Shown piece after piece: positions 18,001 to 24,000 of a DNA stretch of 40,960 nt. The DNA lies in the IMG/VR virus record IMGVR_UViG_2534681674_000028, positions 1 through 40,960 of that record; one strand, 5' to 3'. Position numbers: made by a program. The DNA comes from a virus. Its lineage: Duplodnaviria; Heunggongvirae; Uroviricota; Caudoviricetes. Position 1 is the first letter of the stretch. Every line of letters begins with the position of its first letter.

Positions 18001-21000
18001 GTAACAACGCCTGAATTTTTTCAACTGCATCAGGGGTGTCTTTCTCTACCCAGCGGAAAATTTTCTGGGTATTGCGAGCCAGGGCTTCCGGATGGCTGTC
18101 GTCATACAGTTCTGGGAACGTCATACCCAACTCAAAATAAGCCTGGGTTATTCCAGCTGCTGGAACTTTTTCGCCATCAGGACGCGCCCAGGCATTCATC
18201 GCCATGCGGATGTGTTCATGCTTGATTTTCATGAATCAAGCTCCTAGAAAGTGGTTGTGTTAACGTTTTGGTATCTTCCAGCTCGGGCCAAATATTCATC
18301 CAATCAAAAGGCCTTAGTTGCTGACGTGTAACTTCACCATTACTGGCTCGCTCAATAAGGACACATAACGATGCCCCTAACACTTGACCTTTACTCAATG
18401 CCTTTCTTAGATAACCGATGCTGGTACCACACTCACATGCAAACATACGCTGTTCATCTGACGAAAGAGAATTGAGAAATATTCTTAATTCTTCCATAGC
18501 TACTCCTTAGTAAACACAGCAAAGAATACCCACAGGTAAACAAAAGTCAATACCCACAGGTTGTTTACCTTGCGGTAATCGCATCTATTATTTACCTATG
18601 GACAAATATGAATTTAGACGACAGCAACTCATCAAAATTCGTGATGAGAAATGCGATGGTAAAGCGGTTAACGTGGCCAGAAAGATCGGGCGCGAGCCTT
18701 CTTATGTATCAAGAATGTTGTACCCAGAGGGGAAAAAGGGAAAAAAACGGATCGCTGATGATATGGTGGAGATTATCGAAGAGTCCTTTGGGTTACCCCG
18801 GGGATGGATGGATGGTATCGTTTCATCATCAACGAACACAGCCTCCAGTTATGAAACAAGGGTTCTAACGCCACGACAACGTATTTTTTTAGATCTCTTA
18901 GACGAACTGCCAGAAAGTGAAGCGGATAAATTATTAAAAACTCTTGAAGAGAAAAAACAGTATTACAATATGATCTACGAAGAAATCCGTAAAAAGAAAG
19001 CACAAAACGCATCATAGCTCACCAAACAACTAGTCACCAGTTAAGACACCGCAAAAAATTTACCCATGGGTATTTACTTTTTAAATACCTATGGGTATCC
19101 TTCTTTTCATACCAACCCACCCCGCCCCACAGAATGCAGGGCAATACTTCGAGTTACCAGGCAGTGGTCAGGGGTTAAGTAGCCAGCCCGAGGCGTAAGA
19201 ACATGACGGCAGGGTTCAACTTTAATAACTATGCAGCAGGTTTTTGTTCCGCTACCCCGGCGTTAAGGGGAAATGAGGTCAGCATGGATACTATCGATCT
19301 TGGCAACAACGAATCTCTGGTATGTGGCGTGTTTCCCAATCAGGACGGCACGTTTACCGCGATGACGTATACCAGAAGCAAAACGTTTAAAACTGAAGCT
19401 GGCGCGCGTCGCTGGTTAGCCAGAAACACTGACTGATGAGGTTGACGATGGAATTTAAAGATTTACCTCCTTCAATCCAGGAGATTGCAGCACACACACT
19501 TCGTCATCGTCTGAACGAACTTGAATTGGAATCGGTAACGAAAAAAGACACTGATAATATGGCTCGTAATGTGCGCGATGCGTTTACCGGATTGTATTTC
19601 TGTGCGTCTATAAATAAACACGACTCAGAGAGTGTGGCAAATAAAATTGCAGAAACGACAGCGCAAAACATCAATACGAAACCAACGGAAGAAGAAATTG
19701 ATCAGTTTGCTCATGATGCTGGTTTAAAAAACAAGAAAGAAAAATCGCCATATGCGGGGAACATGTTTGTTTATGACAATCTCATCAGAATTCGTGGCGA
19801 AATTCCGGCGGAATACCTGGCAAGAGTCCATCAGGCATTGCTTAAAAATTTGGAAACAGAATTATTTGATGGCAACACTAACGGTTTCTTCATGGTATCA
19901 GGCCTTGAGAAAGACTGGGATGCAGAAAAACGCTGGAATGTTGCTACATGGTTATTCAGTAACAGAGCCGCTGCACTGGAAGCTTCGGCATGTATTTGCA
20001 GCCTGTTCTTAACAGACCACAAATATAATCTGGATGTGTACAGTTATATTTACGCTGAACACGGTCCACTCTGGATTGACTGGTAATTATAAGGAAACAC
20101 CAGCAGGGCCGCGGCGACCAACAGAACGATTAAAATCAATAATGCCATTATAAAGGACATTATTTAATTTATCGTCGAATGCTGATTCTGTGAGCCTCAA
20201 CTCTGAATGAGTTTTTAATAACCCTGATTGCCTGAGTTGATTTACCAGGCATTCAATCTGTTTTTCAATAAGCGGATTTCTTTTTTTGTTTGGCATTTTA
20301 TCCTCCATTGAGGTTCTGGGTTAAAAATGGAGACCAACACGCTGTCACGTGTGGTCGTGCGCCGGACACGGATAAGAATCCGGTACTGACAGTTTACTGA
20401 AAGGATATTTCCCTGAAAAGTCAGTGCATAACGCGAAAGCGTACGGCGAAGCTCTTTCCCTTAGAAGGCTTGTCGTTAGATTTCTTCGAACGTGCGCTTC
20501 CGGTTGTGGCACTCCGCGAAATGGCGCGGCGGTAAGTATGGCGGGGTTATTCCTTCCCCATTGAGGACACCGGGTTGTCAGGTTGACCATACGCTTAAGT
20601 GACAACCCCGCTGCAACGCCCTCTGTTATCAATTTTCTGGTGACGTTTGGCGGTATCAGTTTTACTCCGTGGCTGCTCTGCCGCCCTTTTTAAAGTGAAT
20701 TTTGTGATGCGGTGAATGCGGCTAAGCGCACGCGGAACAGTTAAAACCAAAAACAGTGTTATGGGTGGATTCTCTGTATCCGGCGTTAATTGTTAACTGG
20801 TTAACGTCACCTGGAGGCACCAGGCACTGCATCACAAAATTCATTGTTGAGGACGCGATAATGGAAACGTTATTACCAAACGTTAATACGTCTGAAGGTT
20901 GTTTTGATATTGGTGTTCTGCTCAGTAACCGGGAGTTTACTGAAGATGCCATTAACATGAGGAAATATGAGCCTTATCTGCTCAATGATAATTCCATACT

Positions 21001-24000
21001 TTCCCGAATTGCTCTTCTTGAACTTGGTATTTTCGGAGAACGTCAATGACTTCAGCATTTGCACTGATGATGACGGTTTTTCTTATAACGGGTGAATCAC
21101 AGAATGTGATTACCGGAATTTATGCCAGTAAAGAATCCTGCCTCCAGGCAAGAGACGAGCAAAAAATTTCTGGTGAATGCCTCCCGGTAAAAAAAGTATC
21201 GCTGTACCTGAATAACGAAACACCGGCTGGATAACCCTCCAGCCATATTAACACCATACCAACGGATTAAAAATGCCAGCAATGGCAGGGATTTGTTCAC
21301 CCTTAAATCTGTAATGAGGTTTATCAATGAGCACTGATAAAGAAGAATTTGCGCTATATTGCGAAGCAAAAAATGACAAAGTCAGAAAACGTCTGGGAAT
21401 TAAAGGTGGTTTTTACTGGACTACAGCAAAAAAATTATCTGTTGCCATCTCCCGCTGCATTACCGCAATGGATGACAACGATTATGATGAAGACGACTTT
21501 AAAAAACCCGTTCGCGTCCATTTACCCGTTGTGAATGACCTTCCACCTGAAGGCGTGTTTGATACCGAATTCTGCAACCGATACGAAAAAGGCGGGGAAG
21601 ATGGCATTACAATGGTATTTATCGCGCCCTCTCCCTCCGTGCAGGAGAAACCAGCCAGTACTGACAATACCAACGTCAACGGCGAAGACATGACGGAGAT
21701 TGAGGAGAATATGCTCCTGCCGGTTTCTGGTCAGGAGCTGCCCATTCGCTGGCTTGCGCAACACGGCAGCGAAAAACCAGTAACGCACGTTGCACGGGAA
21801 GAACTTCAGGCATTACATATAGCACGGGCGGAAGAACTGCCGGCTGTTACTGCCCTGGCCATTTCTCACAAAACAAAGCAGCTCGACCCGCTGGAGATTC
21901 GCGACCTTCACAAACTGGTACGCGACACTGACAAAGTTTTCCCTAATCCCGGTAATTCAGACCTGGGACTGATAACTGCTTTTTTCGAGGCATACCTGGA
22001 CGCTGACTACACTGATCGGGGTCTGCTGACAAAAGAGTGGATGAAAGGAAATCGTGTTTCGCGTATCACCCGTACGGCTTCCGGTGCAAATGCCGGTGGC
22101 GGGAACAAAACCGATCGCAATCCGAATTTAGTACACACCTTCGATACGCTGGATGTGGAGATTGCAGCAGCCACACTTCCGATGGATTTTAATATTTATG
22201 AAATTCCGGGCAGCGTTTATCGTCGCGCAAAAGAAATCGTCCTGAAAAGAGAAAGTCCGTTCAAAGAATGGTCCGCAGCACTTCGCGCAACCCCGGGTAT
22301 TCTGGACTATTCCCGCGCCGCTATTTTTGCACTTATCCGGAGCGCTCACCCTGAGTTTTATCACTACCCGGGACGCCTTCAGGGGTATATCAACGCCTAC
22401 TTAACGGAGACTGATCACGAGAACCCCAGCAAGGAAACTCTCACTGCTGCACGACATACACCGGAAAAAGATATCCTGGAAGAAGTTAACCGCGAACTGT
22501 CTGCTAAGCAGGAAACAGAAGAAGAAGAAAATGATGAAGAAAAACCGCAACCATCTTGCGCAATGGCAGATGAACAGGCAACGGCTGAAACAGTGGAACC
22601 GGATGCAACTGAACATCATCAGGACACGCAGCCGCTGGATGCTCAGTCACAGGTAAATTCTGTTGATGCGAAATATCAGAAACTGCGGGCAGAACTCCAT
22701 GAAGCCCGGAAAAACATTCCGCCCCAAAATCCTGTCGATGCAGACAAATTACTGGCTGCCTCTCGCGGAGAATTTGTTGAAGGGATTAGCGACCCGAATG
22801 ATCCGAAATGGGTTAAGGGGATCCAGACCCGCGATTCTGTGTACCAGAACCAGCAAGAAACGGAACAGAACGACCAGAAAGCGGAACAAAACAGCCCAAA
22901 TGCGTTACAAAACGAGCCAGAAACGAAACAGCCTGAACCAGTGGCGCAACAGGAAGTGGAAAAAGTCTGCACCGCCTGCGGTCAGACCGGCGGCGGCAAC
23001 TGCCCTGATTGTGGCGCGGTGATGGGCGACGCAACATACCAGGAAACATTCGATGAAGAGAATCAGCCTGAAGTTCAGGAAGATGATACGGAGGAAATGG
23101 AAGGCGCTGAACATCCACACAAGGAGAACACTGGCGGCAATCAGCATCACGATAGCGATAATGAAACTGGCGAGACGGCAGATCACTCAATTAAGGTGAA
23201 CGGTCATCAAGAAATCACATCCACCAGCAGGACGTGTGACCATCTAATGATCGACCTTGAAACCATGGGAAAAAATCCTGATGCCCCGATCATCTCAATA
23301 GGTGCAATATTTTTCGATCCGCAAACCGGAGATATGGGACCGGAATTTAGTAAGACTATCGATCTGGAAACTGCTGGCGGGGTCATTGATCGGGACACCA
23401 TTAAATGGTGGCTTAAGCAATCACGTGAAGCGCAGTCTGCCATTATGACCGATGAAATCCCGTTAGATGATGCACTACTGCAATTACGGGAATTTATCGA
23501 CGAAAACTCCGGTGAGTTTTTTGTTCAGGTCTGGGGTAATGGGGCCAACTTCGACAACACGATTTTGCGCCGTTCATACGAACGACAGGGTATCCCCTGC
23601 CCGTGGCGCTACTGCAACGATCGCGATGTACGCACAATCGTTGAGCTGGGGAAAGCCGTAGACTTCGATGCCAGAACTGCTATCCCATTCGAAGGTGAGC
23701 GCCACAATGCTCTGGATGATGCCCGTTACCAGGCAAAATACGTTTCAGCTATCTGGCAAAAACTGATCCCGAATCAGGCTGATTTTTAATGTTCAACCCC
23801 GGTCGTTGCCCACCAGCTATAGTGGCGGCGACCATGATTAGCGAACGACGCTCATGGCAAGACTTATTCTGCTCACTGAGTGGGCAAAAGAGGAATTCAG
23901 TGAACCGGTCCCTACTCCGAGTACGTTAAGTAAATACGCTAAAGCCGGAATGATATTTCCTCTCCCCAAAAAAGTTGGAAGACGCTGGCGAGTGGATCCG

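Follow-up and report, generated by a model that had tools for sequence, protein, structure and literature searches.

A predicted pseudoknotted RNA domain, conserved with and without DicF, in the untranslated leader of a prophage dicF-dicB cassette

The DNA analysed here (the window) is a stretch of 40,960 nt, positions 1-40,960 of the IMG/VR virus record IMGVR_UViG_2534681674_000028 (Caudoviricetes). It carries a dicF-dicB-ydfD module, in which a long untranslated leader is followed by the small RNA (sRNA) gene dicF, the division-inhibitor gene dicB and a ydfD-like open reading frame (ORF). The locus is one of the copies, in prophages of enterohaemorrhagic Escherichia coli (EHEC), of the dicF-dicB cassette, a much-studied inhibitor of cell division. 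Published work already covers the module, the processing of its leader and its occurrence in varied EHEC prophages; the finding is real, not new. The single fresh point is a part of the leader, 20503-20617, which is predicted to form a conserved pseudoknotted RNA domain. Its pairing is supported by covariation, it has no Rfam family, and we could not find it described. The coordinates of its helices and of the other features are collected in Table 1.

The alignment of the domain was built from two IMG/VR pattern scans and from genome and phage loci, and it holds at least about 80 distinct versions. The IMG/VR scans returned mostly E. coli-type copies among the matches listed, and a scan of genome contigs with a DicF pattern gave 8 loci. 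In the alignment fitted with a covariance model (CM), where the fit was made to the nested helices and the retrieval patterns had fixed parts of the loops, 96.2% of the cells pair, and 10 pairs with 42 cells are changed on both sides. None of 500 shuffles reached the observed values, and when the partners were slid by 1-3 columns, 33-53% of the cells paired. The plain MAFFT alignment gave a similar picture (95.7% of the cells pair; 8 pairs and 29 cells changed on both sides). The compensatory changes are located in helices P1, P3 and P4 and in the pseudoknot, and they extend across the Qin, cdtI and P1/P7 lineages. The sequence-only reading had called the leader full of stem-loops and had quoted one inverted repeat, GGGTTGTCA/TGACAACCC. 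This repeat lies exactly at 20572-20580 and 20600-20608, the two strands of P4, and the region around it is indeed strongly folded: the minimum free energy (MFE) of 20340-20900 is -204.1 kcal/mol (z = -4.95), and none of 100 dinucleotide shuffles folds as well.

Our covariance model of the domain (R1) scores 170.8 bits on 20503-20617 and finds a single copy in the window. In a permissive scan of Rfam 15 up to E = 10, no match overlapped 20327-20634, hence none was obtained for the domain. In the literature searched, neither the domain nor the architecture shared by DicF, KilS, the DicF-like sRNAs and the P1 ban leader was found described, and no paper was found that links DicF to phage P1, to KilS or to a pseudoknot.

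According to a sensitive BLAST search of the leader against phage genomes, its pieces travel separately. Phages cdtI and Ayreon, like Stx2c phages, have the stretch 20503-20625 (88% identity) close behind cI and unaccompanied by DicF. The stretch 20514-20610 is found about 25-40 nt after the C1-controlled Pban promoter in P1 and P7, where the domain is the first element of the ban-operon transcript and adjoins the feature called 'dicF-like region' in the P1 annotation. These copies lie at 2482-2621 of the P1 locus (L012), 1073-1215 of the P7 locus (L014) and 2993-3134 of the cdtI locus (L013). The P1-type copy is present in 511 plasmid records of P1-like phage-plasmids, and the plasmid search gave this type only. 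A hairpin with a U-run follows within about 50-90 nt 3' of the domain in 110 of the 112 distinct instances among the matches listed. The terminator modules are DicF or at least eight other types, some of them clear relatives of DicF, and one carries a compensatory GGUGG/CCACC stem. Since nearly all instances are followed by such varied modules, the domain is the constant part and the sRNA is the variable part. On the pR side of cdtI, opposite to its domain on the pL side, a C4 antisense RNA (68 bits) and an IsrK match (60 bits) are adjacent (L013 540-728, minus strand).

The conservation and structure of the leader could also carry no function of their own, and could reflect young DNA that spread by recombination among lambdoid prophages. 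The mosaic boundaries at about 20356 and about 20960 are sharp, most copies are more than 93% identical, and the effective sequence number is low, as expected for such a history. It would not explain the compensatory changes across lineages, the loss of pairing in the slid controls, the domain being kept at 78-88% identity in otherwise unrelated phage genomes, or the low z-score of the fold. We consider this explanation highly improbable.

The genes of the module were identified as follows. In the scan of the whole window, Rfam RF00039 (DicF) matches 20635-20686 on the plus strand with 75.0 bits (E 6.5e-15). The match spans the full model (positions 1-52 of 52) and passes the gathering score of 48, so that the CM search for DicF proposed beforehand gave a clear hit. 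The gene at 20634-20686 differs from that of K-12 by a single substitution, at 20670, and DicF with its tail is identical at 57/58 positions (98.3%). At its 3' end a terminator-like hairpin (20669-20684) is followed by the T-run CCTTTTTAAA, and the Rfam structure line is satisfied. The 62-aa ORF after it is DicB. Pfam PF05358 matches it end to end (residues 1-62, the full model) with 125.5 bits (E 6.4e-37; cut-off 27), 39 of its 62 residues (63%) are identical to K-12 DicB, and the Prokaryotic Genome Annotation Pipeline (PGAP) names DicB (WP_000449175.1) in an identical genome. The first 100 nt of dicB (about 33 codons) are 88% identical to K-12 and the remainder 48%; the C-terminal half being only 48% identical in DNA, MinC-dependent inhibition of division by this variant is a presumption from homology. 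The next ORF matches Pfam DUF1482 (PF07358) with 56.3 bits (cut-off 25), and its product is 45% identical to K-12 YdfD (56% in DNA). The order of a DicF homologue with its terminator, a DicB homologue and a YdfD-like ORF, as it had been read from the sequence, is thus confirmed. A sharp mosaic boundary lies within dicB at about 20960: 20961-21234 is about 50% diverged from K-12, and the RNA block just upstream is near-identical.

The leader had been proposed to span 20309-20632. Homology to all other dicF loci begins at about 20356, and up to 20355 the window and K-12 are unrelated (41% identity). The proposed span therefore holds from 20356 onward, whereas its first 47 bases (20309-20355), which adjoin the start of the minus-strand gene 20087-20308, lie outside the conserved leader. 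The suggested alignment of 20309-20860 with the K-12 ydfC-dicF-dicB region gave near identity from 20356 on. Against K-12 Qin, 20503-20860 is 97-100% identical, namely 97.4% in 20503-20617, 100% in the linker 20618-20633 and 98.8% in the dicF-dicB spacer; the adjacent coding DNA is 48-56% identical. These results indicate that the non-coding block is the most conserved part of the cassette. In K-12 Qin the stop codon of ydfC is 340 nt upstream of dicF, and a long untranslated region around dicF has been described (PMC5069750). The 'long structured leader' is the same untranslated sRNA precursor as in E. coli K-12. In its 5' part, 20356-20502, the MFE fold predicts hairpins at 20369-82, 20383-20427 and 20443-76. 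The leader is GC-rich in a relative sense only, 20309-20632 having 52% against 48% in the window and about 40% in the flanking genes.

A small protein encoded by the leader would be another source of conservation. Two ORFs exist, one of 95 aa (20345-20632, minus strand) and one of 46 aa (20424-20564, plus strand), and in some phage records the homologous stretch is annotated with 'hypothetical proteins'. No frame across 20495-20636 is open in all 81 homologues (among the matches listed), and the spacing between the conserved leader motifs varies (48-57 nt) by non-multiples of 3. Neither ORF matched any PHROG family, no gene is called there by PGAP or in the K-12 annotation, and the variation tracks base-pairing, not codons. 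Thus the absence of a credible ORF, which had been noticed from the sequence, is borne out, and coding by the leader, which is extremely improbable, is excluded for practical purposes.

The domain and DicF are separated by the AU-rich single-stranded linker GCCCUCUGUUAUCAAU. At the 3' edge of this linker, 20633/20634, RNase E would make the DicF 5' end, judging from the homology to K-12. In the dicF-dicB spacer, a perfect 21-bp helix is formed in the MFE fold by 20694-20714 with 20825-20845. It encloses about 110 nt, including a CCUGG-AGGCA-CCAGG hairpin (20810-20824), and ends 5 nt before the dicB Shine-Dalgarno sequence GAGGA (20850-54). This helix is the probable RNase III site. At the same place in cdtI there is an unrelated, equally long perfect helix (L013 about 3175-3262).

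In K-12, DicF is made only from the polycistronic transcript of dicBp, and there is no internal promoter (PMC10448788). The 5' end of a 190-nt species depends on RNase III and that of the 53-nt species on RNase E (PMC10448788), whereas the 3' end of a 72-nt DicF comes from RNase III and that of the 53-nt form from intrinsic termination (PMC5069750, PMC9438474). Because the window is nearly identical to K-12 from 20356 on, the suggestion that the leader is a processed precursor is correct, and it has already been shown experimentally for a virtually identical sequence (PMC10448788, PMC5069750, PMC9438474). Counted back from the DicF 3' end, 190 nt lead to 20497-20502, at the base of P1 (20503). 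The 190-nt RNA would therefore consist of the domain, the linker and DicF. A 72-nt DicF starting at 20634 would end at 20705, inside the 21-bp helix. The end of the published 1,146-nt transcript would then fall within a few nt of 20835, as for a 2-nt staggered RNase III cut opposite 20705, on the assumption that the published 813/814 cleavage is the 190-nt 5' end, a placement that depends on the assumed transcription start.

According to these considerations, the following order of events may be proposed. When the repressor is lifted, transcription would start from a promoter just 3' of the repressor gene, run through the DUF1391 gene and the 216-aa ORF, and enter the 550-nt untranslated RNA block 20356-20860. 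Some polymerase would stop at the DicF terminator and yield the sRNA precursor only, and the remaining polymerase would read through into dicB, ydfD, the exonuclease gene, xis and int. RNase III would cut near 20500, where the structured domain has its base, and within the 21-bp helix, giving the 190-nt and 72-nt species, and RNase E would cut in the AU-rich linker at 20633/20634 and free the 53-nt Hfq-binding DicF. DicF would repress ftsZ and metabolic mRNAs, and DicB made from the read-through RNA would block division via MinC. From the sequence identity, promoter control and processing through RNase III as well as RNase E are presumed to operate in this prophage as in K-12.

What the domain does in this scheme can be stated with less confidence. 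We tentatively favour, at somewhat less than an even chance, that it provides the sRNA precursor with its constant 5' module, which would fix the processing sites and stabilise the 190-nt form as a reservoir. Several points weigh against this role and the scheme around it. The effective sequence number of the covariation set is low (1.62), as few lineages contribute, and the RNA evidence comes from K-12 only, the promoter position in this prophage being an expectation. Since ydfB and ydfC are replaced and the minus-strand gene 20087-20308 is inserted, the supply of transcript to dicF could differ. A helix of 20473-20502 with 20718-20748, considered as a candidate 5' substrate of RNase III, gained no support: to the eye its changes seem compensatory in the cdtI and P1 types, but the duplex energies do not surpass those of shuffles (z = -0.5 for these stretches, -0.5 to -2.5 overall). 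A scaffold role does not obviously explain the strictly conserved loops and the pseudoknot, and K-12 Rac yields the DicF-like sRNA KilS without the domain.

The 190-nt RNA could instead be functional itself, the domain acting in trans, for example as a protein-binding decoy or sponge that many phages deliver, with the DicF-type seeds as add-ons. The 190-nt species is discrete, accumulates and is stable in the stationary phase (PMC10448788). The domain is far more conserved than the attached sRNA or the neighbouring protein genes, and it is universal in the P1-like phage-plasmids, where it stands beside tRNA genes. RNase E depletes the 190-nt species, however, as expected of a precursor, and the computed results do not separate this role from that of a scaffold. 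We regard it as very unlikely. Both this explanation and that of conservation without function are weaker than control of transcription in cis, the main rival of the scaffold role.

In that rival the domain would be a cis-acting RNA that sets stopping against reading on at the DicF-type terminator, either as a factor-independent antiterminator like HK022 put or the Bacillus EAR element, or as an attenuator that senses a ligand or a protein. The position immediately upstream of an intrinsic terminator in nearly all instances is consistent with this. In P1 and P7 the domain starts shortly after the Pban start, and two tRNA genes, the tci genes and ban lie downstream. In cdtI and Ayreon it is located in an untranslated leader of about 600 nt after pL, with the whole early-left operon and a further annotated terminator behind it. 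An N-like antiterminator is not recognisable among the early-left ORFs in the window or in cdtI, all of which belong to PHROGs of unknown function. By analogy, the four helices with a pseudoknot, the strictly conserved loops and the size may be compared with aptamer- or EAR-type RNAs, and K-12 has both terminated and read-through transcripts (PMC10448788).

HK022 put is about 70 nt, has two stems and is present at both pL and pR (PMC9378689). Like put, the domain is a structured RNA that lies upstream of terminators and close to where a lambdoid early operon starts, and a dedicated protein is not recognisable; this likeness is an analogy only. The domain differs from put in its size (about 115 nt), in its four helices with a pseudoknot, in its occurrence on the left side only and in having neither sequence nor CM similarity, and it is not a put element. 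Homology to put was rejected after a BLAST search with word size 7 against the HK022 immunity region and a search with R1: putL and putR show no sequence similarity to the domain, and the immunity region has no R1 hit. A second copy on the pR side is absent in cdtI, unlike put. No conserved anti-terminator pairing was found. The pairing of J2/3 (GGCGGUAAG..., 20528-20547) with the 3' arm of the DicF terminator, seen in the MFE fold, is not kept: in the L040 type the terminator is GGUGG/CCACC and J2/3 is unchanged, and P1 has an unrelated terminator. There is also no valid ops site. The reading of GGCGGTAAG as an RfaH ops element fails at position 8, which departs from ops, and P7 has GGCGGCA for the ops-like GGCGGTA, with C at the critical T. 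Furthermore, the sRNA requires termination for its Hfq-binding U-tail. Considering both sides, control of transcription by the domain in cis is unlikely. Its broader form, in which the domain is an undescribed RNA family serving as the constant 5' module of the DicF-family cassettes and of the P1/P7 ban leader, and acts in cis on RNA polymerase or the terminator, is quite unlikely.

The copies of the domain in the ban-operon leader of P1 and P7 are 78-83% identical to it and score 100-106 bits with R1, with compensatory changes in P4 and the pseudoknot. An intrinsic terminator follows it there, and an STnc100-like spacer lies further downstream, before tciA/terB. The differences are that the P1/P7 domain stands directly after a C1-controlled promoter, that its terminator module is not DicF, and that tRNAs, the tci genes and the ban helicase gene are downstream.

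The K-12 Rac kilS-kilR locus has the DicF-like terminator sRNA KilS, a spacer of about 150 nt as in the window, and a division inhibitor next; a DUF1391 gene lies upstream, with an opposite-strand gene (sieB in Rac). It differs in having KilR, not DicB, as the inhibitor and in lacking the pseudoknotted domain. KilS, a verified sRNA, can be aligned to the terminator half of DicF (L158, K-12 Rac, 700-1175, minus strand). From this alignment and the common spacer followed by kilR, the Rac kilS-kilR and Qin dicF-dicB loci are homologous cassettes. The paper that names KilS does so without mention of DicF, and it reports KilS as possibly independently transcribed (PMC8175672).

In a search of 1.5 kb, the dicF-dicB spacer (20684-20893) reaches 34.7 bits (E 1.7e-5) with STnc100 (RF02076), whose gathering score is 47. 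In common with the family it has the long outer helix, the GGUGAAU motif and, with a compensatory change, the UCACCNGGAGGCACCNGGCA hairpin, but at this score it is not a qualifying member. The spacer element is found again upstream of kilR in K-12 Rac and upstream of terB/tciA in P7 (L014 2501-2616) and P1 (L012 3842-3961). Elsewhere, at 4125-4333 on the minus strand, the window has a true STnc100 (175.6 bits), which ends in a terminator of its own and lies downstream of the Q antiterminator gene. It abuts the anti-sRNA AgvB (4063-4124, plus strand) and is also downstream of a tRNA-like hit at 4453-4512.

Table 1. Positions, in the window, of the dicF-dicB module, the predicted RNA domain and the surrounding prophage features.
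Feature	Position	Strand	Remarks
Q antiterminator gene	6191-7012		Opposite arm
CII/YdaT-like ORF	17807-18232	-	Replication genes behind
cro-like ORF	18216-18497	-	Divergent from repressor; YdaS-like, 25.8 bits, under Pfam cut-off 30
Prophage repressor gene (CI analogue)	18598-19017	+	Same orientation as dicF operon; PHROG 5736 'transcriptional regulator', 234 bits
Terminator-like hairpin	19061-19097	+	Just 3' of repressor gene; 16-bp stem, then T-run
YdfA/YdaF-like DUF1391 ORF	19203-19436	+	First early-left gene; Pfam DUF1391, 100.3 bits
216-aa ORF	19436-20086	+	In place of ydfB/ydfC; PHROG 2151, 487 bits; no Pfam match
69-73-aa ORF	20087-20308	-	Inserted within operon; PHROG 4274, 173 bits; hypothetical protein WP_001133037.1 in identical genomes
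Conserved leader, 5' part	20356-20502	+	Counterpart of K-12 ydfC 3' untranslated region; 84% identical to K-12 Qin
Predicted pseudoknotted RNA domain, conserved	20503-20617	+	115 nt; four helices and pseudoknot
Helix P1	20503-10 / 20610-17	+	
Helix P2	20514-18 / 20525-29	+	
Helix P3	20542-46 / 20556-60	+	Variable hairpin
Helix P4	20572-80 / 20600-08	+	
Pseudoknot	20531-33 and 20536-41 with 20587-95	+	Pairing with P4 loop
Linker	20618-20633	+	AU-rich, single-stranded; 100% identical to K-12
DicF sRNA, intrinsic terminator and U-tail	20634-20691	+	53-nt gene at 20634-20686 (alignment with K-12 annotation)
dicF-dicB spacer (dicB 5' untranslated region)	20692-20860	+	98.8% identical to K-12
dicB homologue	20861-21049	+	62 aa; C-terminal half diverged
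ydfD-like DUF1482 ORF	21046-21234	+	62 aa; 4-nt overlap with dicB stop codon
Exonuclease gene	21327-23789	+	820 aa, intact; Pfam Exonuc_VIII, 115.8 bits, and Rv2179c-like, 226.7 bits
Excisionase gene	23854-24102	+	Pfam Exc, 31.9 bits
Lambda-type integrase gene	24080-25210	+	Arm-DNA-bind_1, 77.7 bits, and Phage_integrase, 58.7 bits

The region very probably belongs to a lambdoid prophage from the Shiga-toxin group of E. coli and forms the middle part of its early-left (pL-type) operon, with the dicBF cassette known from K-12 Qin. The segment 20050-21300 is 100% identical to many O157:H7, O26 and O121 chromosomes, and 4,734 of 5,426 complete E. coli genomes hold some match to it, at a median of two places each. 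The PGAP annotation of an identical genome lists dicB, one DUF1482 protein and two hypothetical proteins, the leader carrying no gene call; the DUF1391 ORF is called shorter there (19284-19436). Near-identical dicF leaders were also found in metagenome-assembled genome bins labelled Veillonella parvula and Collinsella sp. (loci L008 and L010). These are almost certainly mis-binned E. coli prophage contigs.

The order of the K-12 Qin dicBF operon (ydfABC-dicF-dicB-ydfDE) is the same, namely a DUF1391 gene, the untranslated leader, dicF, the spacer, dicB, ydfD and a recE-like gene. The RNA block 20503-20860 is near-identical, DicF differs by one base, and the Pfam families of DicB and YdfD match. 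The differences lie in the flanking and coding parts: the C-terminal half of DicB and YdfD have diverged, and of ydfA-ydfB-ydfC only the DUF1391 (YdfA-like) ORF is present, ydfB and ydfC being replaced by the 216-aa ORF and the minus-strand ORF. The exonuclease, xis and int genes are intact in the window, whereas Qin has the ydfE and intQ pseudogenes and an IS2 insertion. In the 820-aa protein, an exonuclease VIII (RecE) region at the N-terminus is joined to an Rv2179c-like 3'-5' exoribonuclease domain at the C-terminus. K-12 (ydfE) and O157:H7 strain TR01 have this gene as a truncated pseudogene. The gene 20087-20308 runs against the early-left operon, a placement that resembles that of sieB in Rac. 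A strongly hydrophobic 36-aa ORF (20050-20160, minus strand) overlaps its 3' end in a different frame.

The immunity pair is not DicA/DicC, as neither the repressor nor the cro-like ORF corresponds to those of Qin. The repressor shows 33% identity to DicA within a C-terminal 46-aa stretch only, no match to RacR, and 39% identity over 119 aa to CI of phage Tritos. The view that the cassette sits next to a repressor unlike DicA, in a different immunity background, is thus supported. The occurrence of dicF and dicB in several different O157:H7 prophages, and hence in varied backgrounds, is already published (PMC5069750). By analogy, the early-left promoter should lie between the hairpin 19061-19097, which follows the repressor gene, and 19203; in cdtI and Ayreon a cI terminator is likewise followed by pL, as seen or as annotated. 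Frameshift pseudoknots of the ALIL type (116-121 bits) are present at 10758-10875 (minus strand), 26992-27108 and 30905-31021 (both plus strand), one within the prophage between the replication and Q regions and two past the integrase gene. They indicate three insertion sequences of the IS3 family.

The module itself is of little weight: EHEC dicF-dicB cassettes have been documented, and hundreds of genomes have sequences identical to this one. What the comparison brings out is that DicF (Qin), KilS (Rac), the DicF-like sRNAs and the P1 ban leader share one architecture, composed of a structured domain, a variable terminator sRNA, a long RNase III-type helix and a gene that is toxic or early. 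Control of read-through or of processing by the domain, if real, would explain how the toxic dicB or kilR is coupled to the sRNA and yet separable from it, and how N-less lambdoid phages pass a terminator that heads their early-left operon. If the cis-acting explanation is true, the domain would be a new RNA-based switch of early transcription for N-less lambdoid phages and P1, which would set the ratio of sRNA-only to read-on transcription.

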